Source: Lentimicrobiaceae bacterium
Lineage (GTDB): Bacteria > Bacteroidota > Bacteroidia > Bacteroidales > JAGONC01
Assembly (NCBI GenBank): GCA_017993235.1
Contig: JAGONC010000002.1
Location: 44,683 to 108,682, forward strand
Length of the DNA stretch: 64,000 nt
Reading direction: 5' to 3'
Part shown: in pieces, positions 16,659 through 63,083 of the stretch
Numbering within the stretch: position 1 is the first letter of the stretch
Layout: every line of letters begins with the position of its first letter
Notes under the pieces: model-generated
What the model was told of the DNA's origin: nothing
Database searches by the model: none
What the model saw: only the letters and a program-made list of their open reading frames with translations
Translations under genes and position numbers: made by a program

Positions 16659-17723
16659 ATGGAATCAGTCACTAAATCCCTGCTCAGGTTCATTATCCTC
16701 TTCCTGATTTTCATTCCCGGACTGGCCGTTGATTCGTTTTCACAGGAGGATAAGCAATACCGGTTGGGCTGTATTGCATTTTACAATCTTGAGAACCTTT
16801 TTGATACGATCAATGATCCCTCCACCAATGATGAAGAATTCCTTCCTGACGGCAGGAACGCCTGGGATGGAAAACGGTATGCTGATAAACTGAAGCAGTT
16901 ATCTTCGGTCATTGAACGTATCGGGATTGATCTGAATCCGGATGGACCTGCAGTCATCGGTGTTTCTGAGATTGAGAACCGGGCGGTGCTGGAAGACCTT
17001 GCACAGACTGAATCGTTAAAAAACAGGGATTATCAGGTTGTCCATTTTAACTCTCCCGACCGGCGTGGAGTTGATGTGGGACTGCTATACCAGCCAAAGT
17101 ATTTTCAGCTTTTGCATGCCACGAGCCACAGGCTGGTCATTCCAGACCAGCCTGATTACCGTACGCGGGACCAGCTGGTCGTTTCAGGCATCTTTGACGG
17201 TGACACCCTGTATCTGATTGTCTGTCACTGGCCATCCCGCAGCAGTGGCGAAAAAGTGACCCTGCCTTACCGGATTGCGGCAGCCGGCCTGAGCCGGACG
17301 ATCGTTGATTCCATCCTGGGATTCTCCCCTGATGCCAGGATCATCCTGATGGGGGATCTGAACGATAATCCGGTCAACAAAAGTGTCGTCAGGGTACTGG
17401 GAAGTACGCCTGACAAAGAACTGGCAGTCGGCAACTTTCTGTACAATCCGATGACCAGCCTTTACAGGAAAGGTATCGGATCCACTGCCTGGAGAGATAC
17501 CTGGAGCCTGTTTGACCAGATGATCGTATCGCCCTCACTTGTGCACGGAGATCCGAATTCTTACCGGTTCTATACCGTCCGGATCTTTAACGAACGATTT
17601 CTCACCCAATCAGAGGGTGAATATAAAGGATATCCCTACCGGACTTTCGGCAGCGGTGTTTATCTGGGGGGGTATAGTGACCATTTTCCGGTGTATCTTT
17701 TCCTGTATAAAGAAGACCGATGA
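16659..17723 (+). CDS. Exported endonuclease/exonuclease/phosphatase (EEP) family protein
   Basis: A signal peptide is present. FYNLENLFD near the N-terminus, GDLND and the C-terminal YSDHFPV are the EEP catalytic motifs. Confidence 0.8.
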   Translation: MESVTKSLLRFIILFLIFIPGLAVDSFSQEDKQYRLGCIAFYNLENLFDTINDPSTNDEEFLPDGRNAWDGKRYADKLKQLSSVIERIGIDLNPDGPAVIGVSEIENRAVLEDLAQTESLKNRDYQVVHFNSPDRRGVDVGLLYQPKYFQLLHATSHRLVIPDQPDYRTRDQLVVSGIFDGDTLYLIVCHWPSRSSGEKVTLPYRIAAAGLSRTIVDSILGFSPDARIILMGDLNDNPVNKSVVRVLGSTPDKELAVGNFLYNPMTSLYRKGIGSTAWRDTWSLFDQMIVSPSLVHGDPNSYRFYTVRIFNERFLTQSEGEYKGYPYRTFGSGVYLGGYSDHFPVYLFLYKEDR

Positions 17724-17762
17724 TATCTGATATCTGATTAACGATATCTGATATTTGATTTT
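17721..17762. repeat. Heptamer-phased tract of the TGATATC/TGATTTT family
   Basis: The tract reads TGATATC TGATATC TGATTAAC GATATC TGATATT TGATTTT. It starts on the TGA stop of the EEP gene and ends on the stop of convergent mfd. Confidence 0.85.
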
Positions 17763-20700
17763 ATTCACTAGCGATTTTACGCAGGAACTCCAGTGCTTCA
17801 AATACGGATCTGACAGGTTCGATGGTCAGGGTAAGCCGGGATTGTTTTTCTTTTAACCTGCAGGAAAGGGGATTGTTTTTGACAAAATCCAGGACGCTGG
17901 CAAACAGGTCTGATTTGTAATAATCCGATTCCTGGTTACTGACGAATTGCCCGACAAGGCAGTTGTTCTTCAGGATGATCTTCTCGAAGCCTGCTTTTCT
18001 GGCAATCCATCTCAGCCTGACCGCATGGATCAATCCATCCACCTGGGCGGGAATGGGTCCAAAGCGGTCGATCATCCGCTCCAGGTACTTCATCAGCCAT
18101 TCCTCGTTATCCACATTATCCAGTTCCTTATAAAGGATAAGCCGTTCGCTGATGTTGGATACATAATCATCCGGAATTAACAGTCCGAGATCCGTTTCAA
18201 GCTGAACCTCACGGATAAATTCTTCCGCCGCTTCTGCTTTATACAGCTCCCTGAATTCAGTTTCCCTGAGTTCCTGCAGGGCCTCATCCAGGATCTTATG
18301 ATACATTTCAAAGCCAATCTCGGTGATGAAACCGCTTTGCTCCGCACCCAGCAGGTTGCCGGCTCCCCGTATATCCAGGTCGCGAAGCGCAATATTGAAG
18401 CCGCTACCCAGTTCTGCAAATTCCTCAATGGCTTTCAGACGCTTTCGGGCTTCCGGGGTAAGCACAGACAGTGGCGGTGACAGCAGATAACAAAATGCTT
18501 TTTTGTTGGAACGGCCTACACGGCCCCTGAGCTGATGCAGGTCACTCAGCCCGTAATTCTGGGCATCATTGATGATGATGGTGTTGACATTGGGAATATC
18601 CAATCCGTTTTCAATGATCGTTGTGGAAAGCAGGATATCGTAATATCCTTCAATAAAATCCAGCATGGTGCGCTCGAGTTTGTGACCTTCCATCTGTCCG
18701 TGCCCGACGGCTATTTTCACACCAGGAACAAATTTGGAGATCATCTGGGCAACATCCTGGATATTCTGGATGCGGTTGTGCACAAAATAAACCTGACCTC
18801 CCCTGGATAGCTCGTACCGAATGGCATTCCGGATGATATCCTCTCCAAAGGGATGAATTTCAGTCTGTATGGGATACCGGTTGGGCGGAGGTGTGTTGAT
18901 CACGGAGAGGTCTCTGGCGCCCATCAGCGAAAATTGCAGGGTCCGGGGAATCGGTGTGGCCGTAAGTGTCAGTGTATCAACGTTCACTTTGAGCTGTTTG
19001 AGCCTTTCTTTTGCGGAAACACCGAATTTCTGTTCTTCGTCAACGATGAGCAGGCCAAGATCCTTAAATACGACATCCTTGCTGAGCAGGCGATGCGTTC
19101 CGATGAGGATATCCGTTTTGCCGGATTCCAGTTCCGAGAGGCTCTTTTTCAGCTCTTTCGGGCTCTTGAAACGGTTTATATAATCCACCGTGCAGGGAAA
19201 GTCCCTGAGCCGGTCAGAGAAAGTGCGGTAGTGCTGAAAAGCGAGGATCGTGGTGGGTACCAGCAATGCTACCTGTTTACTGTCGGCGACAGCTTTAAAA
19301 GCAGCGCGGATAGCAACTTCTGTCTTTCCAAAGCCGACGTCGCCGCATATCAGCCGGTCCATCGGATGAGTTGCTTCCATATCACCTTTGATATCATTGG
19401 TTGACTTTACCTGATCGGGTGTATCCTCATAAATAAAAGAAGCCTCCAGTTCGTGCTGAAGATAGGAATCAGGCGAGAACGGGTATCCATCGGCTGTTTT
19501 ACGCTCTGCATAGAGTTTGATGAGATCTTTTGCAATATCTTTTACCTTTTGCTTGGTGCGCTCCTTGATCCGGTTCCATGCATTGGAACCCAGCCGGTTA
19601 AGCTTCGGCACACTGCCTTCTTTCCCGATGTACTTGGATATGCGATGCAGGGAGTGAATGCTGACGTACAACAGATCGTCGTTGTCATAAACAATCCGGA
19701 TCGCCTCCTGGATCCTGCCATTGTTCTCGATCTTTTCAAGCCCTTCATAACGGCCTATACCATGATCAATATGGGTCACATAATCACCCGGATTCAGGTT
19801 GTACAGTTCCTTGATCGTCAGGGCTTCCCGCCCGCTGTAGAACTCCTTGAGCTCAAAACGGTGATAACGGTCGAAGATCTGATGGTCGGTGTAGATGGCT
19901 ATCTTCAGGTCATGATCAACGAATCCTCCCTGAAGACCCAGGTTCAGGGTTGTGAATACAATATGCTCGCTTTCGGGAAGATCCCGCTGTATATCTTCAA
20001 AGATGGCATATAATCGCTCAAGCTGCTTGGGGCTGTCGGTTGTGATGATGTTGTAAACCTGTTCACGGCTGTTCATCCTCAGGTTATCGAGCAGCAGGTT
20101 AAAATTCTTATTGAAAGAAGGTTGAGGTGAAAGATGGCATTCGATCCTCAGACTGTTTTCTAGCAGGGAAGAATTGCCCAGTTCAATGACCGGAAACGAT
20201 AAGGCATCCTTCAGAATTTCCTTTCCGGTTGTAAACAGGTCATTCAGTGACAGATCGGGCGTATCCGTTGATTTTAAGAATGCATCTTCCGCCTTATGAA
20301 ATTCCTGGTCAATGCGTTCAAGGGTGAACGGGATCTGGTCGAACCATAATACCGTCTCCGACTGAATGTACGCTAACAAGGATTCCCTCTGCTCTTTCTG
20401 TTTTCGATCCTGAATGTTCGGAAGCAGTGTGATGCGGTTAAGTTTCTCCAGTGAGAGCTGTGTACCCGGATCGAATGTGCGGATGGAGGCGATTTCATCA
20501 CCTGCGAATTCAAGCCGAAAGGGATTATCATTGGAAAATGAAAATACATCCACGATCCCTCCCCGGATGGAGAAGTGCCCCGGCTCCAGAACAAAATCCA
20601 CCCGTTCAAATTCATACTCGGAAAGCAGATCTCCGATAAAATCCAGGCTGAGGGCATCTCCTTTTTTTATTTTAAACAGATTTTTCCTCAGGGTGTTCCG

Positions 20701-38435: not shown

Positions 38436-38557
38436 GGAAAAGGTTTTTGTAAAATTAGAAAGAATGAAGGATGTAGAATGAAATATGAAAAATTTTTAAT
38501 TACCTGTCAGAAAAATCAAATAATAATACATTATTAATAAATGCTCGCACATTCATC

Positions 38558-38606
38558 AAGCTGCAAGCTGCAAGCTTCAAGCTATAAGCTGCAAGCTGCA
38601 ACCTGT
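38558..38606 (+). repeat. Heptamer array (AAGCTGC) x7
   Basis: The array reads AAGCTGC AAGCTGC AAGCTTC AAGCTAT AAGCTGC AAGCTGC AACCTGT and is followed by the hairpin ATCCCGC-TGTC-GCGGGAT (38608-38625). Confidence 0.9.
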
Positions 38607-38752: not shown

Positions 38753-39265
38753 ATGTATGCAATCGTTGATATAGCAGGGCAACAGTTCAGGGTTGAACAG
38801 GGTCAGGAAGTCTTTGTTCACCGCCTGCAGGGCGAGGAAGGTTCACAGGTCCGGTTTGAGGAAGTCTTACTGGTGGATGCCGATGGCAAAATCAGGGTGG
38901 GAACACCTGTGGTTGAAGGTGCAGTGGTCTCCGCAAAGATCCTTTCACACCTGAAGGGTGACAAAGTATTGATTTTTAAAAAGAAAAAAAGAAAAGGCTA
39001 CCAGAAACTGACCGGTCACCGCGACTACCTTACGCGTATTCTTATTGAAGATATTTCATTGACCGAAAAGAAAAGAGATAAACCGAAGGAAAAGAAAGAA
39101 CCGGTTGTGGAAGAACAGGCTGCCCCTGCTGCCGAAACGATCATCGAAAGCAGCCCTGTACCCCAGGCGGTAACGGATGAGATGGCACCGGAAGAACCCA
39201 AGGCAAAGAAGCCGCGGAAAAGGCCGGTAAAAAAAGTTGAGGAAGAGGGAACGGAGGAGAAGTAG
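38753..39265 (+). CDS. rplU: Ribosomal protein L21 with a ~65-aa K/E/P-rich C-terminal extension
   Basis: MYAIVDIAGQQFRVEQGQEVFVHRL..KVLIFKKKKRKGYQKLTGHRDYLTRILIEDI is the L21 core. The tail is EKKRDKPKEKKEPVVEEQAAPAAE..PKAKKPRKRPVKKVEEEGTEEK. Confidence 0.9.
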   Translation: MYAIVDIAGQQFRVEQGQEVFVHRLQGEEGSQVRFEEVLLVDADGKIRVGTPVVEGAVVSAKILSHLKGDKVLIFKKKKRKGYQKLTGHRDYLTRILIEDISLTEKKRDKPKEKKEPVVEEQAAPAAETIIESSPVPQAVTDEMAPEEPKAKKPRKRPVKKVEEEGTEEK

Positions 39266-39268
39266 GCG

Positions 39269-39312
39269 GTTGGCAGTTGGCAGTCAGCAGTCAACAGTCA
39301 GCAGTCAGCAGT
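39269..39312 (+). repeat. Heptamer array of the GTCAGCA/GTTGGCA family (x6)
   Basis: The array reads GTTGGCA GTTGGCA GTCAGCA GTCAACA GTCAGCA GTCAGCA GT and begins 3 nt after the rplU stop. Confidence 0.9.
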
Positions 39313-39316: not shown

Positions 39317-39334
39317 AAGCTTGCAGCTTGAAGC
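39317..39334 (-). repeat. Inverted copy of the AAGCTGC-family words
   Basis: The reverse complement of AAGCTTGCAGCTTGAAGC is GCTTCAAGCTGCAAGCTT, which contains the 14-mer CAAGCTGCAAGCTT found at 38564-38577. Confidence 0.7.
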
Positions 39335-39360
39335 CAATATATTTAGAAACATAATTAACC

Positions 39361-39837: not shown

Positions 39838-41106
39838 ATGTTAGAATTAAGCTTTATCCGTGACCACAGGCAGGAAGTTATCCAGCGCCTGGGAATCAAA
39901 AACTTTAAAGCGATTCATCTGGTGGACGAGATCCAGCAGGTGGATTCCGACCGGCGGAAGATCCAGAAAACCCTCGATGATATTCTGGCAGAATCAAACC
40001 AGGCTGCCCGGGAGATCGGGATCCTGTACAAGAGTGGCCGGGTGGAGGAAGCCAGTGAACTGAAAGAAAAGACTGCCGTGTGGAAGGTACAGTCCAGGGA
40101 ACTGGGCGAAAGGCTGACTGAAACCGAAAACCGGTTGAACGACCTGCTGGTGCAATTGCCCAACCTCCCTCATGCATCCGTACCACGAGGCTATTCAGCC
40201 GAACAGAACGAGAATGTCTATCAGGAGGGTGCTTTGCCTGACCTTGGCCCGGAAGCCATGCCACACTGGGATCTGATCCGCAGATACGACATCATTGACT
40301 TTGAGCTGGGCAATAAGGTGACAGGTGCCGGTTTTCCGTTCTATAAAGGCAAAGGTGCAAAATTACAGCGGGCCCTGATCACTTTCTTCCTGGAGTCGGC
40401 TGTCAAGGCCGGATACCTTGAAATCCAGCCTCCCCTGCTGGTCAATGCAGATTCCGGATATGGCACCGGCCAGCTTCCCGATAAGGATGGCCAGATGTAC
40501 CTCGTGACGGAGGAAAATTATTACCTGATCCCGACGGCTGAAGTGCCCATTACAAACATGTACCGCAACGTTATTCTTCCTGCTGAAAGCCTGCCCGTTA
40601 AAAATGTGGCGTATTCGAACTGTTTTCGCCGCGAGGCAGGTTCGTGGGGCAAAGATGTCAGGGGATTGAACCGTTTGCATCAGTTCGACAAGGTCGAAAT
40701 CGTGCAGATCGTGCATCCGGACAAATCCTACGAAGCGCTTGAGGAGATGCGTACTCATGTTGCAGGCCTTCTCCATGCACTGCAGCTGCCCTTTCGTATC
40801 ATGAAACTCTGTGGAGGGGATTTGAGCTTTACCAGTGCCCTGACCTATGATTTCGAGGTTTATTCTGCTGCACAGGCAAGATGGCTGGAAGTCAGTTCCG
40901 TATCCAACTTTGAATCGTTCCAGTCGAACCGGATGAAATTACGCTTCAAAGACCAGGAGGGAAAAACCAGGCTGGCCCATACACTAAACGGCAGTGCCCT
41001 GGCGTTACCCAGGGTGGTGGCCGCTCTGCTGGAAAATAACCAGGGTGCGAACGGGATGACGATTCCCGAAGTATTGGTACCGTATACCGGGTTTGGAATG
41101 ATTTGA
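39838..41106 (+). CDS. serS: Seryl-tRNA synthetase
   Basis: A start at MLELSFIRDHRQEV matches the SerRS N-terminus. The class II motifs FRREAGS and GSALALPR are present. The 48-nt upstream extension in the ORF track is an artefact of the repeat cassette. Confidence 0.95.
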   Translation: MLELSFIRDHRQEVIQRLGIKNFKAIHLVDEIQQVDSDRRKIQKTLDDILAESNQAAREIGILYKSGRVEEASELKEKTAVWKVQSRELGERLTETENRLNDLLVQLPNLPHASVPRGYSAEQNENVYQEGALPDLGPEAMPHWDLIRRYDIIDFELGNKVTGAGFPFYKGKGAKLQRALITFFLESAVKAGYLEIQPPLLVNADSGYGTGQLPDKDGQMYLVTEENYYLIPTAEVPITNMYRNVILPAESLPVKNVAYSNCFRREAGSWGKDVRGLNRLHQFDKVEIVQIVHPDKSYEALEEMRTHVAGLLHALQLPFRIMKLCGGDLSFTSALTYDFEVYSAAQARWLEVSSVSNFESFQSNRMKLRFKDQEGKTRLAHTLNGSALALPRVVAALLENNQGANGMTIPEVLVPYTGFGMI

Positions 41107-41146
41107 GAGAGGAGAGAGGAGAAAGGAGAGAGGAGAAAGGAGAAAT
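41105..41146 (+). repeat. Purine heptamer array (GAGAGAG/GAGAAAG) x6
   Basis: The array reads GAGAGAG GAGAGAG GAGAAAG GAGAGAG GAGAAAG GAGAAAT and begins inside the serS TGA stop codon. Confidence 0.9.
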
Positions 41147-41157: not shown

Positions 41158-43056
41158 ATGTTGATGTATTGGAAGATTTATAGGGAAATTGTACTATTTG
41201 TTATGGGGATGCTGTTACCGGCAATGATGATTTTTGCGCAGCAGCCGGAAACAAACCGGATCATCAGCAGAAGACCGGCATCCACCCGCCCCAGCAATGC
41301 CAGCAATGAAAGCCAGCTGGCTGCAGAATATTATTCACAACAACAATATGATAAAGCTGTTGTGCTCTATGAAAAACTCTACAATGAAAATCCAAGTTAT
41401 GTCAACTACAGCTATTATTATTTCAGCCTGATCCAGCTAGGCAGGTATAATGATGCTATAAAGCTGGTCAGGAAGCAAATCAGGGCTTATCCCGAAAAAT
41501 CACGTTATCTGGTCGACCTGGGCTATATCTACCAGATGTCGGACGAACCTGCCAGGGCTCAGAAGGAATACGAGGAAGCCCTTTCACGACTGCCTGCCGA
41601 TCGCAATGCTATCGTTGAACTTGCAGGAGCTTTTCAATCACGCCGGGAAATAGAATATGCTATCCGAACCTATAAAAGAGGCAAAGAATTACTGGGATAT
41701 TCTGAGCCCTTTTATCTGGAAATAGGCCAGATCTATGAAATGGAAGGTAAATATGAAGAAATGTTCAATGAATACCTTAATTTGATCGAGGTGGATCCTT
41801 CCAGGATCAACATCGTACAGAACCGGATCCAGAACAACCTGGCATCCGATCCGGACGGAACAAAAAGTGAATTGTTCAGGATGGTCCTTCTGAAGAGAGC
41901 ACAGGAATTCCCAGATAAGATCTATTATTCTGAAATGCTGATCTGGTATTCCATCCAGCAAAAGGATTTTAAAACGGCATTAATCCAGGCGAAGGCGCTC
42001 GACAGAAGATTCAATGAGGATGGTGCCCGGGTGTTTGAGATCGGCCAGTTATGTACATCCAATGAAGATTATGACGCTGCCGTGGATGCCTTCAGCTATA
42101 TTGTCAAAAAAGGCGAATCCTCAGGGCTGTACCTTTCAGCCCGCATTGAGCTGCTGAATGCCTCTTTTTTGAAGAGTACAAGCGTTTATCAACCCGAACA
42201 GCAGGTACTGCTGGACATGGATCAACATTTCGATCAATTGCTGAACGAGCTGGGTTACAATGGCACGACCTTATCCCTGATGCGAAACAGGGCACATTTG
42301 CAGGCTTTTTACCTGAACAGGCAACAGGATGCCATCGCATTGCTGGAAATCGCCCGACAGATAAAGACCCTGAAACCACAGCAACGCGCCGGGATAAAAA
42401 TGGAACTGGCGGACATTCTCTTATTTTCCGGTCAGCCCTGGGAAGCCACCTTATTATACTCGCAGGTGGAAAAAGAATTCAAGTACGAACCCATCGGGCA
42501 CGAGGCCAAATTCCGGAATGCCAGGCTATCCTTTTATATCAGTGAATTCCAGTGGGCAAAGGCCCAGCTCGATGTTTTAAAGGCTGCCACCTCCAAACTC
42601 ATCGCCAATGATGCCATGGAATTATCCCTGCTGATCCTCGACAATATGGATGAAGACAGCACCTACACCGTGCTGGGCAGGTATGCCAGGGCTGATTTCC
42701 TGGTTTTTCAGAACAAAGATGATCAGGCTCTCACGATACTTGACTCCCTGGAGCAGTCCTGCCCGGGTCATCCTATCGGGGATGACATTCTCTACAAAAA
42801 GGCTCAGATAAAACTCAGGGAGGGAAAATTTCACGAAGCCGACACCATTCTCCAGGAGTTGATCAGCCGTTATCCCTGGGACATCCTGGCCGATAACGCA
42901 CTGATGATGAGAGCCTCCCTGATGGAAGATCCGTTTAACGATCCGGCCAGGGCCATGGATCTCTACCAGCAGCTTATGGTGGATTATCCCGGAAGCCTTT
43001 TCGTGGTGGAAGCCCGTAAGCGGTTCAGGGAACTCAGGGGCGATGTGGTGAATTAG
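41158..43056 (+). CDS. Exported tetratricopeptide-repeat protein
   Basis: A signal peptide is followed by multiple 34-aa TPR-like units (A-x-x-x-Y-x-x-A-L-x-x-x-P pattern) throughout the protein. Confidence 0.8.
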   Translation: MLMYWKIYREIVLFVMGMLLPAMMIFAQQPETNRIISRRPASTRPSNASNESQLAAEYYSQQQYDKAVVLYEKLYNENPSYVNYSYYYFSLIQLGRYNDAIKLVRKQIRAYPEKSRYLVDLGYIYQMSDEPARAQKEYEEALSRLPADRNAIVELAGAFQSRREIEYAIRTYKRGKELLGYSEPFYLEIGQIYEMEGKYEEMFNEYLNLIEVDPSRINIVQNRIQNNLASDPDGTKSELFRMVLLKRAQEFPDKIYYSEMLIWYSIQQKDFKTALIQAKALDRRFNEDGARVFEIGQLCTSNEDYDAAVDAFSYIVKKGESSGLYLSARIELLNASFLKSTSVYQPEQQVLLDMDQHFDQLLNELGYNGTTLSLMRNRAHLQAFYLNRQQDAIALLEIARQIKTLKPQQRAGIKMELADILLFSGQPWEATLLYSQVEKEFKYEPIGHEAKFRNARLSFYISEFQWAKAQLDVLKAATSKLIANDAMELSLLILDNMDEDSTYTVLGRYARADFLVFQNKDDQALTILDSLEQSCPGHPIGDDILYKKAQIKLREGKFHEADTILQELISRYPWDILADNALMMRASLMEDPFNDPARAMDLYQQLMVDYPGSLFVVEARKRFRELRGDVVN

Positions 43057-43097
43057 TCGGCAGTTGGCAGTCAGCAGTCAGCAGTTGGCAATAGACA
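43056..43097 (+). repeat. Heptamer array of the GTCAGCA/GTTGGCA family (x6)
   Basis: The array reads GTCGGCA GTTGGCA GTCAGCA GTCAGCA GTTGGCA ATAGACA and begins on the last base of the TAG stop. ATTGACA ATTGACA follows at 43140-43153. Confidence 0.9.
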
Positions 43098-43140
43098 GGT
43101 AAGTACCAGCAGATTAAAATTTAATATCAAAAGTTGGCCA

Positions 43141-43935
43141 TTGACAATTGACAATTTCAGGGAATCGGTCAGGCCGAAGAAAAGGTGGGGTCAGCACTTT
43201 CTGGCTGATGAGAACATCGCCCGTAAGATCGTTGGCAGCCTTTCATCCCACCATCTGCAGGTGCTGGAAGTGGGACCCGGCCGGGGTGTTTTGACAAAAT
43301 ACCTCCTGCCATTGTTTCCTTCCCTGAAGGTGATCGAAATTGATCCGGAATCCGTCGGTTACCTGAACGAATTTCTCCCGGGTTTGGGTAACAGCATCAT
43401 TCAGGATGATTTTCTCAAAAAAGACCTGAAGGAGATCTTTGACGGACACTTCGCCATCGTGGGGAACTTTCCCTACAATATTTCATCCCAGATCCTGTTT
43501 CATCTCATCGCTCACCGTGACCAGGTGACCGAAGTGGTTGGCATGTTCCAGAAAGAGGTGGCGGAGAGGATCGTTTCGCCTCCCGGCAGCAAAAAGTATG
43601 GAATTCTCAGCGTTTTGACCGGGGCTTATTATGACATTGATTATCTCTTCACAGTGAGTGAAAACGTTTTTTTTCCTGCACCCAGGGTAAAATCATCCGT
43701 GATACGGCTGACCAGGAACCAGACGCATCATCTGGATTGCAATGAGGAATTTTTCTTTACCGTAGTCAAGACATCATTCAATCAACGCAGAAAAACCCTC
43801 CGGAATGCCTTGAAGATCCTATCCAAACATGCGATCCTGAGCGATCCTTTGTTTTCCCTTCGGGCAGAACAGCTTAGCATTCAGGATTTTATACGACTGA
43901 CAATCCTTTTGGAAGATTCTTTGGCCAATGGTTAA
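43141..43935 (+). CDS. rsmA: 16S rRNA (adenine1518/1519-N6)-dimethyltransferase
   Basis: KKRWGQHFL, the SAM motif VLEVGPGRGVLT and GNFPYNISSQILF are present. The start codon is uncertain: it is the TTG at 43141, and there is no nearby ATG. Confidence 0.9.
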   Translation: MTIDNFRESVRPKKRWGQHFLADENIARKIVGSLSSHHLQVLEVGPGRGVLTKYLLPLFPSLKVIEIDPESVGYLNEFLPGLGNSIIQDDFLKKDLKEIFDGHFAIVGNFPYNISSQILFHLIAHRDQVTEVVGMFQKEVAERIVSPPGSKKYGILSVLTGAYYDIDYLFTVSENVFFPAPRVKSSVIRLTRNQTHHLDCNEEFFFTVVKTSFNQRRKTLRNALKILSKHAILSDPLFSLRAEQLSIQDFIRLTILLEDSLANG

Positions 43936-48182: not shown

Positions 48183-48183
48183 T

Positions 48184-48312
48184 AAATCCAAAATTCCAAA
48201 ATCCAAATTCCAGACAAATTCCAACCATCAAATTCCAAGCCTCCTCCGAAATGAGCTTTGGGATTTGGGTATTGTAATTTATTTGGAATTTGGATCTTGG
48301 GATTTAGGATTT
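48184..48312. repeat. ~130-bp imperfect palindrome built from AATTCCA/AAATCCA words; likely bidirectional terminator
   Basis: The left arm AAATCCAAAATTCCAAAATCCAAATTCCAGACAAATTCCAACC.. (48184-48240) faces the right arm ..TTTGGAATTTGGATCTTGGGATTTAGGATTT (48256-48312). It fills the gap between two convergent genes exactly. Confidence 0.8.
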
Positions 48313-50347
48313 AATGAATGAGTTTGCTGGCTCTATCAGCCAGTTCGAGTATAGTTATTTTCTCGAAAAAAAGATACGGTGGGAAATTGATCCCGAATTG
48401 CTGTAGAAAAGCATTCTGTAGCTGAACAGCCTTCATGGAATTCAAACCGTAAACCGTAAGCGGCTTGTCTGGATCAATTTGCTCAAACGGTACTTTCAGC
48501 TGACCGTGGATCCAAGCCAGTAACCAGGACTGTATAGAAACAATTTCATCTGATGGCACAGATATTTTCCCGGTCTGTTGTGATTCATCCAGCTTCGATT
48601 CACCAACCACGTCCAGCGTATGATTGAGAAAAGCTGCCTTGCAGGCTCGGCGCTGTATCTTGCCGCTGGAGGTCTTGAGGATGCTGGCGGTGCGGAGCAA
48701 CTGAACGGCATACACCTCCTGTTCCAGTTCCTCCCCCACCTGCTGGCGGATGGCATCACAGACCTCTGCGACATCCAGATCCCGGATGGAGGTCCGCTCT
48801 ACCTCTACCACAATCACGAGTCTCTCTTCTCCGTCAAGATCAACGGAAAAAGCTGCGCTTGCGTTGGGCCGCAGCGCAGGGTGACTGTTCTCGGCAAGAT
48901 ATTCAATATCCTGCGGATAGTAATTCCTACCCCTTAAGATGATCAGATCCTTCAACCTTCCCGTAACGTACAACTCACCTTCGTAAATGAAACCTAGATC
49001 GCCTGTCCGGAGGAAAGGACCCTCACCGGTGTCGGCTGTAAAGGCATGAAAGGTTCCGGCTGTCTCTTCTGATTTATTCCAGTATCCCTGAGCGACAATG
49101 GAACCAGATACCCATATCTCACCGATCTCATCCTCCCGGCAACAATGGAGTGACTCAGGATTGACAATGAGCATCCTTGTATCGATCCATGGCTTCCCGA
49201 CAGAAACCTGACAAGCAGCCCTGACATCCTTCTCCCCCCTGATGACAACCCTGTGCTTCTCCAGAGCATCCTTGTCAACATAAAGGTAGACAGGCTTTTC
49301 GGATACTCTGCCACCAGAAAGGATCAATGTTGCTTCTGCCATTCCATAGGTGGGATGAAATTTTTCAGGGAGGAATCCGTAAGGTTTGAAACGTTCCGTA
49401 AAACATTCAAGCGTGTCTTTCCGTACTGTTTCGGCCCCATTGTACAGGGTCCTCAGCGCAATGAGATCAAGTCCCTGGCAATCCTCATCCGTCGTTTTGG
49501 TAGCACAAAGATCGTAGGCGAAATTGGGAGCGCCCCCGAGAGCTGCTCCATACCGGGAGATAGCCCATAACCATCTGACCGGCTTTTGAATGAATAAAAC
49601 CGGTGGCATTAAAATACCTGTATAACCCGCATAGATCGCTTCAATAACCCCAAAAATAAGGCCCATGTCGTGATACACTGGCAACCAGTGGACACTTCTT
49701 GTATCCGGGGTCAGTTCATAGCATTGGCGCAGAAACTCCAGGTTCCGCATCAGGTTTCGGTGACTGACCATGACACCTTTTGGGCTTGCTGTCGAACCTG
49801 AGGTATACTGCAGAAAAGCCAGATCATCCGGTCTGATTTTATAGCCGAAATCATTACCCGTAAATGATTCCCGGTCAACAGATACCCAGAGCAGTGATCG
49901 CAGTTCTTGAACATCCCTGAAGTTCTTCTCAAACGATTCACGTATCTCATTGATCGTAAGGCATAGCTGGGGATTGCAATCATTGACGATGGATATGATC
50001 CGGCTGAAGGAACGATTTTTTCGGGGAGGATAGGCAGGAACAGCGTAAATACCCGCATAAAAACAGGCGAACAGGGTCTTGACAAACTCCAGCCCCGGAG
50101 GAAAAAGCAGCAGGGCTCTTTCCCCTGATTGAATTCCAAGGCTCCTGATGACATGAGTGATCTCCCATGCCTGATCGTAAAGCTGTTTATAGGTAATCCT
50201 TTCTTCATCAGATTCACCGTCCTTTAAAAAAATAAACGCGGCTTTATCCGGTGTGTTCTCCGCTCTCAGCTTCAGAATATCACATAGGGTAAAGCCATAC
50301 GTATCCTCTTCCGTGATCGTACCCAACAAAAAATTTTTCAGTCCCAT
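48311..50347 (-). CDS. FAAL-type adenylating enzyme fused to a C-terminal carrier (PP-binding) domain
   Basis: The motifs are AFLQYTSGSTASPKGVMVSHRNLMRN, WLPVYHDMGLIFG, YGMAEATL, TGDLGF..LYVTGRLKDLIILRGRNYYPQDIE and TSSGKIQRRACK. The carrier domain reads VYGLNSMKAVQLQN. I call the start at MGLKNF (ATG at 50345-50347), not at 50500. Confidence 0.85.
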   Translation of the reverse strand: MGLKNFLLGTITEEDTYGFTLCDILKLRAENTPDKAAFIFLKDGESDEERITYKQLYDQAWEITHVIRSLGIQSGERALLLFPPGLEFVKTLFACFYAGIYAVPAYPPRKNRSFSRIISIVNDCNPQLCLTINEIRESFEKNFRDVQELRSLLWVSVDRESFTGNDFGYKIRPDDLAFLQYTSGSTASPKGVMVSHRNLMRNLEFLRQCYELTPDTRSVHWLPVYHDMGLIFGVIEAIYAGYTGILMPPVLFIQKPVRWLWAISRYGAALGGAPNFAYDLCATKTTDEDCQGLDLIALRTLYNGAETVRKDTLECFTERFKPYGFLPEKFHPTYGMAEATLILSGGRVSEKPVYLYVDKDALEKHRVVIRGEKDVRAACQVSVGKPWIDTRMLIVNPESLHCCREDEIGEIWVSGSIVAQGYWNKSEETAGTFHAFTADTGEGPFLRTGDLGFIYEGELYVTGRLKDLIILRGRNYYPQDIEYLAENSHPALRPNASAAFSVDLDGEERLVIVVEVERTSIRDLDVAEVCDAIRQQVGEELEQEVYAVQLLRTASILKTSSGKIQRRACKAAFLNHTLDVVGESKLDESQQTGKISVPSDEIVSIQSWLLAWIHGQLKVPFEQIDPDKPLTVYGLNSMKAVQLQNAFLQQFGINFPPYLFFEKITILELADRASKLIH

Positions 50348-50420: not shown

Positions 50421-50426
50421 CACATC

Positions 50427-51515
50427 ATGTCCCTCTTCACCATCCCCAACATCCGCATCGCTGGCATGGCAGCAGCTGTTCCGGCAAAAGAGGTTTCCAA
50501 CCTTGATTACCGTTGGATCTCCGTCAAAGAGCGAAATCAGGTCATCAGGACGATTGGAGTGGAAAAACGCCGGATCGCCGAAAAAGGTCAAACAACGGGC
50601 GATCTGTGTTTTGCGGCTGCCGACAGGCTTCTGAATGATCTGCAATGGAACCGGAACGATATCCAGGTAATCGTTTTTGTTTCCCAGTCAATGGATTATA
50701 TTATCCCTGCCACCGCCCCCATTTTGCAGGATCGCCTATCCTTACCCAAAACGTGCATGGCATTCGATATTAACCTGGGATGTTCGGGATTTGTATACGG
50801 ACTGTCGGTCATCGGCAGCCTGATGAGCCAGGCCGGTTTCCAGAAAGCACTATTGCTGGCGGGAGATCTTTCCAATGTTACTTCCTCCTACCGGGATAAA
50901 AGCACGTATCCCCTGTTCGGGGATGCCGGTACGGCCACTGCACTGGAATTTGACCGGAACGCGGTTCCCATGACGTTTAACCTCCAGACCGATGGTTCAG
51001 GCTATCAAGCTATTATGATTCAGGATGGGGGAGTGCGTAACTGGGTAAGCAAAAAATCATTCAACTACCATAAATACGGGAAAGGCATATACAGGAATAA
51101 CCTTCAGATCGCGTTGAATGGGATCGAAGTGTTCAACTTTTCCCTTAGGGAAGTAGTCCCTAATATCAAAGCCACACTCGAATACGCAGGGAAAACACTG
51201 AATGATTTTGATTACCTGGTCTTCCACCAGGCTAACCGGCTGATCAATGAGACGATACGAAAAATGCTGAAAGCAGATAAAGAGAAGGTTCCCTATTCCA
51301 TCCATAAGTATGGAAATACCAGCAGCGCATCCGTACCCCTGACCATCGTTTCCGAATTACAGGATAAGATCCGGAAAGAACATGTCCGTTTCCTGCTATC
51401 AGCATTCGGAATCGGATTATCCTGGGGCACGGTGTTGCTGGAGACGGATGGGGTGGTGTGCCCGGGGGTACTGCAAGTCAGCAGTCAGCAGTCAACAGTC
51501 AGCAGTCAACAGTAA
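50427..51515 (+). CDS. 3-oxoacyl-ACP synthase III (FabH-like thiolase fold)
   Basis: The Cys-His-Asn triad contexts are NLGCSGFVYGL, VFHQANRLINE and KYGNTSSASVPL. I call the start at MSLFTIPN. The last 13 codons (QVSSQQSTVSSQQ) are encoded by the GTCAGCA heptamer array. Confidence 0.85.
   Translation: MSLFTIPNIRIAGMAAAVPAKEVSNLDYRWISVKERNQVIRTIGVEKRRIAEKGQTTGDLCFAAADRLLNDLQWNRNDIQVIVFVSQSMDYIIPATAPILQDRLSLPKTCMAFDINLGCSGFVYGLSVIGSLMSQAGFQKALLLAGDLSNVTSSYRDKSTYPLFGDAGTATALEFDRNAVPMTFNLQTDGSGYQAIMIQDGGVRNWVSKKSFNYHKYGKGIYRNNLQIALNGIEVFNFSLREVVPNIKATLEYAGKTLNDFDYLVFHQANRLINETIRKMLKADKEKVPYSIHKYGNTSSASVPLTIVSELQDKIRKEHVRFLLSAFGIGLSWGTVLLETDGVVCPGVLQVSSQQSTVSSQQ
51477..51511 (+). repeat. Heptamer array of the GTCAGCA/GTCAACA family (x5) inside the 3' end of the KAS III ORF
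   Basis: The array reads GTCAGCA GTCAGCA GTCAACA GTCAGCA GTCAACA and is followed by GTAATGA containing the stop. Confidence 0.9.
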
Positions 51516-51528
51516 TGACAACTAATAA

Positions 51529-51624
51529 CCATGAATGACGCGAGGCGCGAAGCGCCGAGCAAATAACCACGAATCACCATGAATGACGCGAGGCGCGAAG
51601 CGCCGAGCAAATAACCACGAATTA
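51529..51624 (+). repeat. Tandem duplication of a 48-bp cassette (47/48 identical)
   Basis: CCATGAATGACGCGAGGCGCGAAGCGCCGAGCAAATAACCACGAAT(C/T)A occurs twice. Each copy holds the hairpin GCGA-GGCGC-GAA-GCGCC-GAGC (51540-51560 and 51588-51608). Confidence 0.95.
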
Positions 51625-51630
51625 CCCCAC

Positions 51631-52365: not shown

Positions 52366-52389
52366 AAGATATCCGATACACGGTTAACC

Positions 52390-52448
52390 GATATTTGATT
52401 TTTGATTTATTTTTGATTTTTGGTTTTTGGTTTTTGATATTTGATATT
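52390..52448 (+). repeat. T-rich heptamer-phased tract of the GATTTTT/TTGGTTT/GATATTT family
   Basis: G residues fall at 52397, 52404, 52415, 52422, 52429, 52436 and 52443, giving spacings of 7, 11, 7, 7, 7 and 7. The tract lies between the SDR stop and the GT2 start. Confidence 0.8.
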
Positions 52449-52453
52449 AAGAA

Positions 52454-53377: not shown

Positions 53378-53378
53378 G

Positions 53379-56411: not shown

Positions 56412-56502
56412 GATGCAAAATTAAAAATTTTGGTGAAGGTCTGGCGAGAGGGCATAATTCAAAGAAAATGCGTTATTTTGCCATCACCCAAATTGATCGT
56501 GC

Positions 56503-57954: not shown

Positions 57955-57960
57955 CAGGCA

Positions 57961-59958: not shown

Positions 59959-60052
59959 CACAGTGGGAAAGAGAAGCAAATATACCCTATTTCATCGTAC
60001 AATCTTCAATTATTCTTATTTTCGCAGGGTCAACACGTTATGAAAGTGAGCC

Positions 60053-61186
60053 ATGGAAGTTCTGTTCAATAAGCCCTATTTAACTGGCAGGGAGTCGCAT
60101 CATCTGGCCCGGGTTGCCCTGTCAGGAAAGTTGTCGGGTAACGGTGAGTATACGCAGATGTGCCAGGATTTTTTCCGGCAACGGTTTGGATTCGGTAAAG
60201 TCCTGCTGACAACCTCCTGCTCCGACGCACTCGAAATGGCTGCCATCCTCTGTGACATTCACCCCGGCGATGAGGTCATCATGCCTTCCTATTCTTTCGT
60301 ATCCACAGCCAATGCATTCCTCCTCAGGGGTGCACACATCCGGTTTGCTGACACCTGCACCGATTACCCGAACATTGATCCCGTATCCATTGAAAAACTG
60401 ATCACTCCCCGCACAAGGGTGATCGTTGTGGTTCATTATGCAGGCGTTGCCTGCGACATGGAATCGGTTATGGCACTTGCCCGTCAGCATGACCTGCTCG
60501 TGGTGGAGGATGCGGCACATGCTCATGACAGCTTTTTCAAGAAGATGCCCCTGGGCAGTATCGGTCACTTCGGTACCTTTTCATTCCACGAAACGAAAAA
60601 CATCATCAGCGGCGAAGGAGGAATGCTGGTGGTGAACGATAAAAAGTTTGAAAAAAGAGCAGAGATCATCTGGGAAAAAGGAACCGACAGAGCAGCTTTC
60701 TCAAGGGGAGAGGTCAGCAAATATGGCTGGAAAGACATCGGATCCTCCTTTTTGCCTTCGGAGATCATCGCAGCAATGCTCTATGCACAGCTTGAAAAAT
60801 ACGATGAGATCCAGGCGAAAAGAAAAAATATTTGGAACGGCTATTACAAAAGGCTCAAACCGCTGGCAGAAGCCAGCCTGATCCGTTTGCCCATCCTTCC
60901 TCAATGGGCTACGGTCAACGGAAGTATGTTCTTTTTGATCACCCGGGACCCTGAGGAGCGTGACGCATTGCTATCGCACCTGAAGAGTGAAGGTGTCTAT
61001 GCTGTCTTTCACTACCTGCCGCTGCACTCCAGCGACTTTTTCCGTCCGCTCCATGATGGCCGTATCCTTCAGCATACGGACCATTTTGCCAGCTGCATCA
61101 TCCGCCTGCCGTTCTATAACGAACTGACCGATTCCGAGATCGACTTTGTAACCTCCGCAATCAAAAAATTCTATACGATTCTTTAA
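60053..61186 (+). CDS. DegT/DnrJ/EryC1-family sugar aminotransferase, WecE-like (dTDP-4-amino-4,6-dideoxyhexose)
   Basis: The N-terminus NKPYLTGRESHHLARVALSGKLSGNGEYTQMCQDFFRQRFG parallels WecE/RffA. The PLP lysine context is FSFHETKNIISGEGGMLV. Confidence 0.85.
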   Translation: MEVLFNKPYLTGRESHHLARVALSGKLSGNGEYTQMCQDFFRQRFGFGKVLLTTSCSDALEMAAILCDIHPGDEVIMPSYSFVSTANAFLLRGAHIRFADTCTDYPNIDPVSIEKLITPRTRVIVVVHYAGVACDMESVMALARQHDLLVVEDAAHAHDSFFKKMPLGSIGHFGTFSFHETKNIISGEGGMLVVNDKKFEKRAEIIWEKGTDRAAFSRGEVSKYGWKDIGSSFLPSEIIAAMLYAQLEKYDEIQAKRKNIWNGYYKRLKPLAEASLIRLPILPQWATVNGSMFFLITRDPEERDALLSHLKSEGVYAVFHYLPLHSSDFFRPLHDGRILQHTDHFASCIIRLPFYNELTDSEIDFVTSAIKKFYTIL

Positions 61187-61239
61187 CTCCTTTCTACCAA
61201 CATGTCATCCCTTCGGGATTTAGATGAATATTATATTAT

Positions 61240-61295
61240 TTCTCCTCTCTCATCTCTCATCTCTCATCTCTCATCTCTCATCTCTCCTCTCCACA
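61240..61295 (+). repeat. Pyrimidine heptamer array (CTCTCAT x5 plus degenerate flanks)
   Basis: Five perfect CTCTCAT units span 61247-61281. The array's complement resembles the purine array at 41105-41146. Confidence 0.9.
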
Positions 61296-61679
61296 CCGGC
61301 ACTCTCCCCGGTGTCCAAGGCGCCCCTGAACGTACCAGTTCATCCTCCAACGCTTTGATATCCTTTTCAGCCCCCGTTCGGATCATCTCCAGTACGGGTG
61401 GAAACTCTTCCAGCAGGATCTCATAATTGTCGATCATTGACACGGTAAAAGCCACTCTGGTCATCCGCCGCTTCAATGATGGCGTACACCACATCCGGAT
61501 TGATTGGACGGATCCATGGCCAGGCAACCGATGGCATAGGCGCCGTAATTGTCAAAAACAGGCTCGAAGGTGGTCCCATTGTTCATGGTTTTCCATATGT
61601 TCCCGCTTGCCACGGCAACGTAGTATTCGCTGTGATCCTCCGGATTTACCGCAAAATCAGCAATGCGACCCGAGGATTT
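61264..61679 (-). pseudogene. Decayed remnant of a large BNR/sortilin(VPS10)-like repeat protein
   Basis: My translation is KSSGRIADFAVNPEDHSEYYVAVASGNIWKTMNNGTTFEPVFDNYGAYAIGCLAMDPSN, then a 4-bp CAAT duplication frameshift (~61500-61507). It continues NPDVVYAIIEAADDQSGFYRVND, then another shift to ..LEDELVRSGAPWTPGRVPVW. There is no start codon, and only ~0.4 kb survives of a gene type that is normally ~3 kb. Confidence 0.6.
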
Positions 61680-61821
61680 TTAACAATCTTTTAAACATAA
61701 TGTAAGGATTTGGCAACATTTTTGTTTTTGATATCCGGTTTTTTTCTGTACAATTTACTAAGAAACAAAATCAAGGGACTTACAACCCTGAAAATTTAGA
61801 AGTCATTAAAATAGGATTCTC

Positions 61822-63054
61822 ATGAAAAAAATAATTCTACTCTCTGTCGTTTTCATATGCTGTCATTTCGTGGGATTTCCCCAGCAGCGGATCCCCGTTG
61901 AAAGCCACCAAACCAAAATGGATCAGCATTATACGGAAAAAGTGTCCTTTACGGGAAGCAGAACCGATCTGGAAGCCCGGTTCACTGCCGATGTACGCTC
62001 AGGAGTAATGCCTCTTTCCGTCCAATTTACCGATGAATCGCTGGGAAACCCTGTCTCATGGGCCTGGAATTTTGGCGACGGCAGCACAAGCACTGAACAG
62101 CATTCTTTCCACACCTATCTCACAGAAGGAAAATTCAGTGTCAGGCTGACCATTTCCGACGGAACGAATACGTACACCCTTGAAAAAGAAAATTACATCA
62201 CCGTGCTGGCAGATCAGCCCAATTGTGATACACTGGATTATCCCTTCACGGGAACATATACTTATTACTTGGTCACGGGAGACGATTCAGGATATGTTTC
62301 CGGTAACAATAGTTTTATGGATAAAGCCAAGGCGAATTATTTCAATGCAATACCTGTGAACATTGAGATCCAGGGACTTTTACTTGAATTTGCTATTGCG
62401 GTTCAGAAAGCAGGTAATATGACAGATATTACATTTGCTGTTTGGGATAATTCTGGTTCAGGTGGCACACCCGGCTCCATCAGGAAGACCGCCTCCATTC
62501 CACTGTCACAGATTATCCAGGATGTTGGCAATAATACGTTTACCTATGTACAGTTCGATGAACCTTTATGGATGAATGCTCCCTTTTACGCCGGGGTGAT
62601 CCTGCCGACAACCACAGGGGATACGGTCGCACTCTGGACAAATACGGATGGAGATGCCGCAACGGGTATCGGATGGGAGCAATGGTCGGATAATGTATGG
62701 GTACCTTATTCGGATTTCGAACTCGGCGGCTGGAAATTGAAAATCGCCAACGCCATATTCCCGGTGGTCTGTGCTTCATCGCAAGGTCTGGAAAGTCAGC
62801 TTAAACAGGAAGATATTCTTATCTATCCGAATCCCGCAACCGATAAGGTCACGGTCAGGTTCAACCAGCCGAACCTCCCTGTCGTCAAAATTCAATTATA
62901 CAACATCATGGGCAGCCTGATGAATTCATTCGTTATCAATCCATTGCAGGTGAACACCACCACAATGCCCCTCCAGGGTTATACGAAAGGTTTGTACTTT
63001 ATGATCATCGAATCGGGTAATCAAAAGATAACGAGGAAGATTCACATCCTTTAG
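61822..63054 (+). CDS. PKD-domain protein with a T9SS C-terminal sorting domain
   Basis: A signal peptide is present. The PKD motif is PLSVQFTDES..WAWNFGDGSTS..H.Y...G.F.V.LT. The tail is ILIYPNPATDKVTVRF..IQLYNIMGSLM..GLYFMIIE..KIHIL. Confidence 0.85.
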   Translation: MKKIILLSVVFICCHFVGFPQQRIPVESHQTKMDQHYTEKVSFTGSRTDLEARFTADVRSGVMPLSVQFTDESLGNPVSWAWNFGDGSTSTEQHSFHTYLTEGKFSVRLTISDGTNTYTLEKENYITVLADQPNCDTLDYPFTGTYTYYLVTGDDSGYVSGNNSFMDKAKANYFNAIPVNIEIQGLLLEFAIAVQKAGNMTDITFAVWDNSGSGGTPGSIRKTASIPLSQIIQDVGNNTFTYVQFDEPLWMNAPFYAGVILPTTTGDTVALWTNTDGDAATGIGWEQWSDNVWVPYSDFELGGWKLKIANAIFPVVCASSQGLESQLKQEDILIYPNPATDKVTVRFNQPNLPVVKIQLYNIMGSLMNSFVINPLQVNTTTMPLQGYTKGLYFMIIESGNQKITRKIHIL

Positions 63055-63055
63055 G

Positions 63056-63083
63056 GATTTTTGCTTTTTGATTTTTGATCCTA
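63056..63083 (+). repeat. T-rich heptamer tract (GATTTTT GCTTTTT GATTTTT GATCCTA)
   Basis: The tract begins 1 nt after the TAG stop of the PKD gene and belongs to the same word family as 52390-52448. Confidence 0.8.

Follow-up and report, generated by a model that had tools for sequence, protein, structure and literature searches.

Heptanucleotide repeats have been known since 1990, and both their 7-nt register and their function are still unexplained. In that year Mazel and colleagues reportedly described them as short tandemly repeated repetitive (STRR) sequences in Calothrix and Nostoc, with CCCCAGT (STRR1), TTGGTCA (STRR2) and CAACAGT (STRR3) said to be the canonical units. Here we describe a set of heptamer arrays in a 64,000-nt stretch of the metagenome-assembled genome of a Lentimicrobiaceae bacterium (contig JAGONC010000002.1, positions 44,683 to 108,682 of the forward strand; hereafter the window), most of which lie between genes and many of which begin on, or within a few nucleotides of, a stop codon. 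One of their minority units, CAGTCAA, present in the arrays at 39262 and 51476, is a rotation of CAACAGT, reportedly the STRR3 unit. The arrays are very probably slippage-type heptanucleotide simple sequence repeats (SSRs), of the class to which STRR sequences and the long simple sequence repeats (LSSRs) of other prokaryotes belong.

The STRR sequences of heterocystous cyanobacteria have been treated in later work (PMC2670836, PMC4692102), and their hairpins have been suggested to serve in transcript stabilisation or translational coupling (PMC2670836). The window arrays share with them the head-to-tail 7-nt units, the intergenic or intercistronic placement and the formation of hairpins by some arrays, as in the cyanobacterial hupS-hupL, and may share their dispersal over the genome; moreover, Nostoc, Microcoleus, Oscillatoria and further cyanobacteria are among the matches listed in the search for exact CAGTCAG arrays described below. 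The host is a different one, as the SerS and KAS III names and the type IX secretion system (T9SS) sorting domains indicate a member of the Bacteroidales/Lentimicrobiaceae and not a heterocystous cyanobacterium, and so are the main units, CAGTCAG and CAGTTGG together with six other families. In the array scans of the window neither STRR1 CCCCAGT nor STRR2 TTGGTCA turned up as a unit family, no search being aimed at either unit.

According to the account in PMC4679880, heptamers proved the most abundant LSSRs in many prokaryotes in the survey of Mrazek, Guo and Shah (2007), which suggested polymerase slippage as their source. The properties listed in that account, namely units of 5-11 nt, lengths greater than chance, dominance of heptamers and intergenic enrichment, are all found here. 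Copy-number change, a further property of LSSRs, appears here as a difference between species at orthologous sites; none was seen among five assemblies of the same strain. Persistence at orthologous sites and the sharing of one unit across phyla do not figure in the survey as that account presents it, and the survey predates the genomes compared here.

Proximity to stop codons (PMC4692102) and the occurrence of heptamer repeats in Bacteroidetes (PMC4679880) were both already known in 2015. The GGGAATC/GGGGAYT heptamers of Xanthomonas and Nostoc studied by Rehm et al. (2015) show a strong bias to adjoin or overlap stop codons, seldom separate divergent genes, are mostly transcribed and in some cases form inverted pairs (PMC4692102). 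The arrays described here share this preference for 0-50 bp from a stop or an overlap with it, and few of those listed from other phyla lie in divergent spacers; unlike those G-rich, G-quadruplex repeats, the units of the window contain no GGG tract, and only a GGCGGGA array in one relative (L128) comes close. MacGregor (2015) reported TAACTGA direct repeats in Beggiatoaceae, cyanobacteria and five Bacteroidetes, some of which overlap stop codons and some of which share spacers with other heptamer repeats, and named Csp, S1 and CsrA as candidate binders (PMC4679880). A first-pass annotation of the window, made from the sequence alone, had been aware of no equivalent description for Bacteroidota, which that report supplies. 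The TAACTGA repeats resemble ours in being intergenic heptamer direct repeats in Bacteroidetes, and their reverse complement (a CAGTTAT rotation) has a CAGT core; unlike the window arrays, they lie mostly just upstream of start codons and in the 'forward' orientation. No TAACTGA direct repeats were found in the window, where the only match, with two mismatches, falls inside a TGATATC array.

Three other repeat classes were compared as well. Contingency-locus SSRs likewise consist of short tandem units whose copy number changes by slippage; their units are 1-5 nt long, and from promoter spacers or 5' coding regions they switch genes on and off, whereas the window arrays lie after stop codons, where a change in length is nearly silent. 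REP/BIME and MITE elements, which have a fixed unit length, common ends and either terminal inverted repeats or a conserved palindrome, do not fit either, as arrays of the same family have no common flanks and the small hairpin elements are separate and stand beside the arrays. Nor does CRISPR, with repeats of 24-48 nt and unique spacers, since the units here are 7 nt long and contiguous.

Heptamer arrays of the window

Arrays were sought with Tandem Repeats Finder, with a separate autocorrelation scan of periods and by reading of the sequence. Tandem Repeats Finder returned 15 period-7 rows. The autocorrelation scan detected 13 non-trivial period-7 arrays, versus 0.3 in dinucleotide-style shuffles, along with 0-3 arrays at the other periods from 4 to 13 and 8 at period 14, a multiple of 7; the specificity for period 7 is a direct observation. 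The longest array runs to 8.4 units. About seven unit families are present, and the same family is found at several loci and in both orientations: the CAGT type at three loci, always in sense orientation relative to the gene, and GATTTTT, GGAGAGA/TCTCATC, AAATCCA and CAAGCTG at two or more each. The array and stop coordinates of the first-pass annotation were borne out by all three approaches with three small corrections, and its seven word families, said to recur at distant loci and in both orientations, were a fair count. The arrays are as follows.

17721..17762: TGATATC array, ~5.6 units, filling the 37-nt spacer between the stops of the convergent genes EEP (+; stop 17721-23) and mfd (-; stop 17761-63); the unit includes the palindrome GATATC
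38557..38605 (+): CAAGCTG array, 7 units, in the divergent Aldedh/rplU spacer; adjoins no stop codon
39262..39312 (+): CAGTTGG/CAGTCAG/CAGTCAA array, ~7 units, within rplU-rpmA; begins on the rplU stop TAG (39263-65)
39317..39335 (+): AAGCTTGCAGCTTGAAGC, a ~2.5-unit remnant of the CAAGCTG family, reversed; 6 units in the relative L127
39714..39730 (+): GTTGCAG array, 2.4 units, 3' of the rpmA terminator
41105..41145 (+): GGAGAGA/GGAGAAA array, ~6 units, unstructured; begins on the serS stop TGA (41104-06)
43055..43090 (+): CAGTCGG/CAGTTGG/CAGTCAG array, ~5 units; begins on the stop TAG (43054-56) of the TPR gene
43134..43156 (+): TTGGCCA/TTGACAA array, ~3 units, overlapping the ksgA start region
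48183..48313: inverted array pair, with an AAATCCA/AATTCCA arm at 48184-48238 and a TGGAATT/TGGGATT arm at 48257-48306; spans the convergent spacer stop to stop, beginning after the carrier-protein stop (48180-82), with the mirror arm ending 4 nt short of the opposing stop
51476..51513 (+): CAGTCAG/CAGTCAA array, 5.4 units; its translation forms the KAS III C-terminal tail
52390..52448 (+): GATTTTT array, ~8.4 units, in the SDR-GT2 spacer, 24 nt from the SDR stop and 5 nt before the GT2 start codon
61241..61291 (+): TCTCATC/TCTCCTC array, 7.3 units, 54 nt past the aminotransferase stop; reverse-complement family of GGAGAGA
63056..63079 (+): GATTTTT/GCTTTTT array, 3.4 units, upstream of the Usp gene; begins 1 nt past the stop of the PKD gene (63052-54)

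Two of these loci had been noted in an incomplete form. The AATTCCA words placed at 48184, after the carrier-protein stop, are indeed there and have a mirror-image arm at 48257-48306 that had been missed, and the 'T-rich tract' placed at 52390-52448 exists as well, as a period-7 GATTTTT array that lies nearer the next start (5 nt) than the SDR stop. The GTTGCAG array probably lies in the serS 5' leader, as judged from its placement and from a -7-box-like TACTTTTG at 39705-12.

A curated gene map assigned 91.1% of the window to coding and 8.9% to non-coding DNA. The non-coding 8.9% holds 11 of 14 arrays (P = 8e-10), so that the equal frequency inside coding sequence which the first-pass annotation had named as contradicting its proposal is not what is found; the exclusion from coding DNA is observed directly. 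Among the nine window arrays in stop-bounded spacers, six lie 5 nt or less from the stop, with P ~6e-5 under a null in which each array was placed uniformly within its own spacer. The bias to stop codons is therefore upheld in the window, as is the description of the arrays as STRR-like and intergenic. The only conserved heptamer repeat in coding sequence lies in the aldehyde dehydrogenase gene (window 37376-37395; also L128 3238-3260 and L129 2585-2605), where three units add up to 21 nt and the reading frame is kept.

Genes flanking the arrays include rplU, rpmA, serS, the TPR gene and ksgA, the genes for a PKD/T9SS protein and for Usp, and a lipid/polysaccharide-type cluster (acyl ligases, carrier protein, KAS III, SDR, glycosyltransferase, sulfotransferases, flippase, MBOAT and aminotransferase). 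The rplU-rpmA pair is expected to be co-transcribed. One array lies inside it, and therefore arrays cannot simply be terminators, in agreement with the first-pass annotation, which had pointed to ordinary hairpin terminators coexisting with them. Such hairpins were found at 1046-1070 and 7040-7071 by terminator scan and at ~27358 and ~39665 by reading of the sequence; no array was reported by the terminator scans, which covered 1-20000 and 47000-64000 and left 20001-46999, with six arrays, outside. A search of the window against Rfam 15 gave no match to any array at the gathering score, the sole match being a tRNA at 968-1039.

Five independent Logan assemblies match 10.5 kb of the region at 99.95-100% identity, and the arrays are therefore real and not an assembly artefact. 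All five Logan contigs with rplU (L002-L006) stop short within the CAGT array, at window position 39309 or 39279; short-read assembly would be expected to behave in this way if CAGT-type sequence, of which the window has three loci, is repeated elsewhere in the genome.

Turnover at orthologous junctions

Syntenic loci were compared in four to five related genomes, with SerS identities of 87, 86, 80 and 74% and KAS III identities of 73-90%. Period 7 again stood out, with 28 arrays in eight relative loci versus 0-1 at other periods. At a slightly lower score cut-off 31 arrays were found, of which 11 lie 5 nt or less from a stop, 5 lie in coding sequence and 1 lies at a start only. The first-pass annotation had raised the prospect of copy-number variation in orthologous intergenic regions, and this is what the relatives display: units and counts differ, and some relatives lack an array. 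At the serS-TPR junction the GGAGAGA array has 6 units in the window, 11 in L127 and 3.5 in L128, with 0 in both L129 and L130, and at the SDR-GT2 junction the GATTTTT array of 8.4 units has counterparts of ~5, ~8, 1-2 and 0 units. At the rplU-rpmA site the relatives carry CTTGCAG, or GGCGGGA plus TTTGGAT (L128), or CAATTGG/CAATAGG in 12 copies, or a plain 36-nt spacer (L130). Composite arrays, with two families side by side, occur at this site in L128 and at the KAS III junction in L131 and L134. The site equivalent to the TTGGCCA/TTGACAA array at the ksgA start is occupied in L128 by an ATCGACA array. Where arrays are absent in the relatives the spacers measure -4 to 41 nt, those of L130 being 36-41 nt long.

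At the TPR-ksgA site an array is present in the window and in all relatives, starting exactly at the conserved ...AATTAG, with CAGTYRG units in the window and three relatives (L127-L129) and CGAATGG units in L130, where they fill the spacer from stop to ATG. A metagenome scan with a degenerate pattern for the TPR C-terminus returned only two contigs, both from genomes already compared. Persistence at orthologous sites together with turnover is observed directly; the site is inherited while copy number and unit turn over and homogenise, which is the behaviour of a microsatellite locus. An insert of ~30 nt splits the TPR-ksgA array in L127 (~9273-9303), L128 (~9222-9251) and L129 (~9234-9265), with the sequence CCTGTCCCGAGGAACGTAGTGACGAGGGAT and, in L128, CCTGTCCTGATGAGTGAAACGAAATCAGGAT. 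The L128 insert has a hammerhead-like look (CCTGTCCTGATGAGTGAAACGAAATCAGG); L128 9150-9400 gave no Rfam match at E <= 1, and the motif does not occur in the L127 and L129 versions.

At the convergent junction of the carrier-protein and acyl-ligase genes the inverted pair is present in L131 and L132, absent from L133, which has an 11-nt spacer, and replaced in L134 by two small hairpins. The loop of the inverted-array hairpin (AGCCTCCTCCGAAATGAGCT, window 48240-48260) is found as its reverse complement in L132 (2320-2340), and this palindromic element has therefore flipped.

The array at the end of the KAS III gene enters the protein. The first-pass annotation had rightly placed it at the gene end and had let it finish 1 nt before the stop; the array (51476-51513) in fact lies inside the open reading frame (ORF), is translated, and shares its last base with the first base of the stop TAA, giving the tail ...QVSSQQSTVSSQQ*. 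The ORF translation has 420 residues, and the Pfam domain of KAS III extends to residue 397. Orthologues have either the conserved end ...VVCPGVLEVG[L/S]* (353 residues) or an array-encoded tail such as SQQSAVSSQQSTVSSQQ; the tails were observed directly and add 2 to 19 residues of SQQSAVSS-type sequence, so that the change of C-terminal tails offered as one possible role of arrays is seen here as an outcome. After the array all three reading frames stop within ~30 nt, and a change in length therefore alters the tail only. Between KAS III and SDR, L132 lacks an array and its genes overlap in an ATGA (L132 5555-5565, TTATGAACG), while the other genomes have 40-170 nt of array; arrays elsewhere in the clade therefore separate genes that overlap in L132.

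Several further elements stand beside the arrays. Next to the CAAGCTG array lies a hairpin, ATCCCGC-TGTC-GCGGGAT (window 38608-38625), and the orthologous spacer of L127 (~4435-4950) holds the same hairpin family, as TTCCCTGC-TTTC-GCAGGAA-TGACG, expanded to roughly 20 tandem copies by eye. Nested GC-rich hairpins at window 47752-47856, directly past the acyl-ligase stop, consist of two CCCCCTCCC...GGGAGGGGG stem-loops within ATACCCACCCCC...GGGGGGTGGGTAT. A second repeat type stands directly 5' of the serS and SDR start codons (window 39749-39814 and 51515-51626) and is made up of AATGAC-phased 10-nt repeats (AATGACTATG x4.6) and, after them, a hairpin, GCGAGGC-loop-GCCGAGC, that has tandem G.A mismatches. 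The apical stem of this element varies between copies with compensating changes (GGCC/GGCC vs GGCGC/GCGCC); the element has no Rfam match, is present at 51524-51626 as a 48-nt unit x2.1, and has a diverged copy at the same junction in L133 (5632-5673). On the minus strand at window 61264-61613 lie frameshifted gene fragments (for example ...SGNIWKTMNNGTTFEPVFDNYGAYAIGCLAMDPSN...), the last of which runs into the TCTCATC array and ends at an array-encoded TGA; a 7-bp hairpin at 61293-61315 separates this gene remnant from the array.

CAGTCAG arrays in other phyla

A search for exact (CAGTCAG)3CAGT with one genome per species gave at least 120 loci. The numbers that follow hold among the matches listed from this search. 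Hosts include Bacteroidales, Chitinophagales, Saprospiraceae, Cytophagales, many cyanobacteria, Acidobacteriota and Nitrospirota, as well as Chloroflexota, Poribacteria, Verrucomicrobiota, Streptomyces and others. The 8-kb loci contain 2.3-4.9 period-7 arrays each, of many unit families, with 274 arrays at period 7 versus at most 38 at any other period. The families AATGACT, AAATCC and AAATTCC are common to these loci and the window.

For the analysis of placement, loci were turned so that the array reads CAGTCAG, and the longest possible ORF starts were used; since such starts, if anything, underestimate the distance from array to start, the comparison between stop and start is conservative. 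Forty-eight of the spacers are co-directional (30 with the array in sense, 18 in antisense orientation), 16 are convergent and 7 divergent. The 30 sense co-directional arrays lie a median of 4.5 nt from the upstream stop and 77 nt from the downstream start, with 16 of them 5 nt or less from the stop and 1 at that distance from the start; 23 are nearer the stop and 5 nearer the start (sign test, P = 9e-4). Antisense arrays, whose CTGACTG unit contains TGA, often overlap the ORF end, so that the array supplies the stop. No reading frame is closed by a stop in sense CAGTCAG arrays, which run together with the ORFs downstream, so that a read-through classification is uninformative in this set. Stop abutment, observed directly, thus holds across phyla and in both orientations and is therefore general to heptamer arrays and not specific to a lineage.

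Such a position could arise if arrays invaded gene ends and made new stops through a CAG to TAG change. As a general rule this is ruled out. The C-termini of the upstream genes are conserved among relatives, and the coding sequence ahead of the stop has no periodicity, its last 14 nt agreeing with the in-phase unit at 30%, the chance level; therefore the arrays begin at native stops. Among the 26 stops that directly precede CAGTCAG arrays (L008-L111; matches listed), 11 are TAG, 9 TGA and 6 TAA, and only 11 of the 26 are one substitution from an in-phase unit triplet. The model does hold for KAS III.

Origin of the arrays and competing explanations

On balance we favour the reading that these are heptamer microsatellites driven by slippage and retained only where selection tolerates them, and we think it rather probable that they have no dedicated function. 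Slipped-strand mispairing would create, expand, contract and homogenise the arrays, with a strong preference for the 7-nt register in many bacteria. As a 7-nt unit shifts the frame, arrays would be purged from coding DNA, and promoters and translation-initiation regions would be closed to them as well. The one tolerant point of a compact genome would be the first nucleotides past a stop codon, including junctions inside operons, and arrays could also survive across the last dispensable codons, where they would supply or follow the stop and give rise to variable C-terminal tails. The 20-80 nt that separate an array from the start codon after it would serve the downstream gene as its functional 5' region. 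Arrays would be transcribed as passive spacer RNA, and their hairpins, whether formed by palindromic units or by the 48183-48313 pair, would be a by-product that may act locally as RNA 3' structure.

Several observations weigh against this account. Slippage is read only from differences between species, because the CAAGCTG array (38557..38605) is identical in five Logan assemblies of one strain; no copy-number variation within the strain was seen among these assemblies, whose contigs end inside the CAGT array. Persistence at the same sites at SerS identities of 74-87% is long for neutral DNA under deletion bias. The recurrence of families at several loci of one genome and in distant phyla is not predicted by local slippage and suggests either a sequence-dependent propensity to slip or exchange between arrays. 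The arrays are also regionally clustered, 12 of 13 falling within a 24.6-kb block at 38.5-63.1 kb with a single one in the rest of the window, and in 17 kb of flanking contig (L135 12900-20939, L136 12180-21233) none was found despite spacers of 10-263 nt; arrays were also found on a different contig of a relative (L033). GC skew shows no switch, which rules out an origin of replication or a change of skew at the divergent 38.5-kb spacer as the cause of the clustering. Lastly, the window genes rplU, TPR and PKD end in TAG, and the rank of TAG as the commonest stop at CAGT arrays hints at some coupling of sequence between stop and array.

The leading alternative holds that the arrays are cis-acting RNA elements of 3' untranslated regions and intercistronic spacers, either bound in the 7-nt register by an abundant single-strand-binding protein of the cold-shock domain, S1 or KH type, or forming hairpins. 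We consider this unlikely, and equally so the roles proposed for such elements, which would be to stabilise the upstream message, to uncouple neighbouring cistrons, or to pause or terminate transcription. Exact starts at the stop, persistence at orthologous sites, the sense orientation of all three CAGT-type loci of the window and the 30 sense versus 18 antisense co-directional arrays among the matches listed from other phyla would all be expected of RNA elements, for which hairpin roles (PMC2670836) and the binders Csp, S1 and CsrA (PMC4679880) have also been put forward. RNA folding speaks on both sides. TTGG/TCGG-rich arrays fold well only as sense RNA, at -14 to -28 kcal/mol versus -2 to -9 antisense, by means of G-U pairs, as in the rplU array (39262..39312), where TTGG units pair with TCAA/TCAG units. 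The TGATATC array (17721..17762; -11.5 kcal/mol, z = -3.0) owes its fold to the palindrome within its unit. The inverted pair at 48183-48313 is predicted to form one long hairpin from stop to stop between the convergent genes, at -56.2 kcal/mol (z = -8.4) on the plus strand and -54.7 kcal/mol (z = -6.6) on the minus strand, and by this model could act as a bidirectional 3' structure. Against a common structure, GGAGAGA, GATTTTT and TCTCATC arrays are fully unstructured (0 kcal/mol), pure CAGTCAG arrays fold worse than shuffles, and the four orthologous KAS III-site arrays give -1.2, -5.7, -28 and -18 kcal/mol. A uniform hairpin or terminator function is thus ruled out, sense-strand energies ranging from 0 to -28 kcal/mol and not being conserved at one site. 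Unrelated units occupy one orthologous site (CAGTYRG vs CGAATGG; CAGTTGG vs GGCGGGA), close relatives do without the array altogether (L132 with overlapping genes, L130 with 36-41-nt spacers), both orientations occur and Rfam offers no match. Since folding is heterogeneous and units are variable, the conserved feature is the 7-nt repetition itself, neither its sequence nor its structure. The dedicated repeat 'system' of the first-pass annotation likewise finds no support in orthologous arrays that change unit or copy number, or vanish, and whose folding is not conserved.

Alternatively, the arrays may have spread as selfish or recombination-borne sequences, by ectopic gene conversion, template switching or hitch-hiking with REP/MITE-like hairpins, such that a repertoire of families in each genome colonises permissive sites. 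Such a process could account for one family at several sites of a genome and differing families at one site among relatives, for the composite arrays at the rplU-rpmA site of L128 and the KAS III junction of L131 and L134, for the interleaved hairpin elements (the ~30-nt TPR-ksgA insert of L127-L129, the tandem hairpins of L127 and the AATGAC-hairpin element) and for the 2.3-4.9 arrays of many families per 8 kb among the matches listed in other phyla. It is quite improbable as the source of the arrays, however: their copies lack common flanks, target-site duplications and terminal inverted repeats, the neighbourhood holds no transposase or other mobility gene, and within an array one unit passes into another through single substitutions, as mutation and amplification in place would predict. 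Moreover, exchange of this kind does not compete with the slippage model and could operate alongside it.

A bolder version of the RNA-element proposal, and a long shot, would see cross-phylum cis-elements at the terminating ribosome or mRNA 3' end, coated by a conserved single-strand-binding factor with a 7-nt footprint. If true, the factor would insulate neighbouring cistrons or set the fate of the mRNA directly behind stops, and the sharing of CAGTCAG by Bacteroidota, Cyanobacteria, Acidobacteriota, Nitrospirota, Chloroflexota and others would be a common recognition code and not a mutational quirk. That the arrays are contingency (phase-variation) loci tuning a surface lipid/polysaccharide cluster by copy number is highly improbable, for although 12 of 13 arrays share the 38.5-63.1 kb block with acyl-carrier, KAS III, SDR, glycosyltransferase, sulfotransferase, flippase, MBOAT and aminotransferase genes and the array in the KAS III 3' end alters the protein tail, phase-variable SSRs act in 5' coding regions or between promoter elements, where these arrays do not lie, arrays flank the housekeeping genes rplU, rpmA, serS and ksgA just as much, only the KAS III tail changes, and copy number did not vary among the five assemblies of the strain.

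In practical terms, heptamer arrays break short-read assemblies and mislead gene callers, producing spurious ORFs and mis-set starts and stops. In the window a spurious 64-aa ORF at 38541-38735 was called through an array, and starts were extended, with serS called from 39790 and ksgA from 43141. Beyond what had been described by 2015, the slippage-driven microsatellites that we favour can now be viewed across five genomes as they turn over at orthologous sites, and one exact unit is found to abut stops across many phyla. Also new are clear array-encoded protein tails and the insertion of arrays between genes that overlap in a relative. The Bacteroidales family thus offers a concrete setting for comparisons that could tell mutational bias apart from function.

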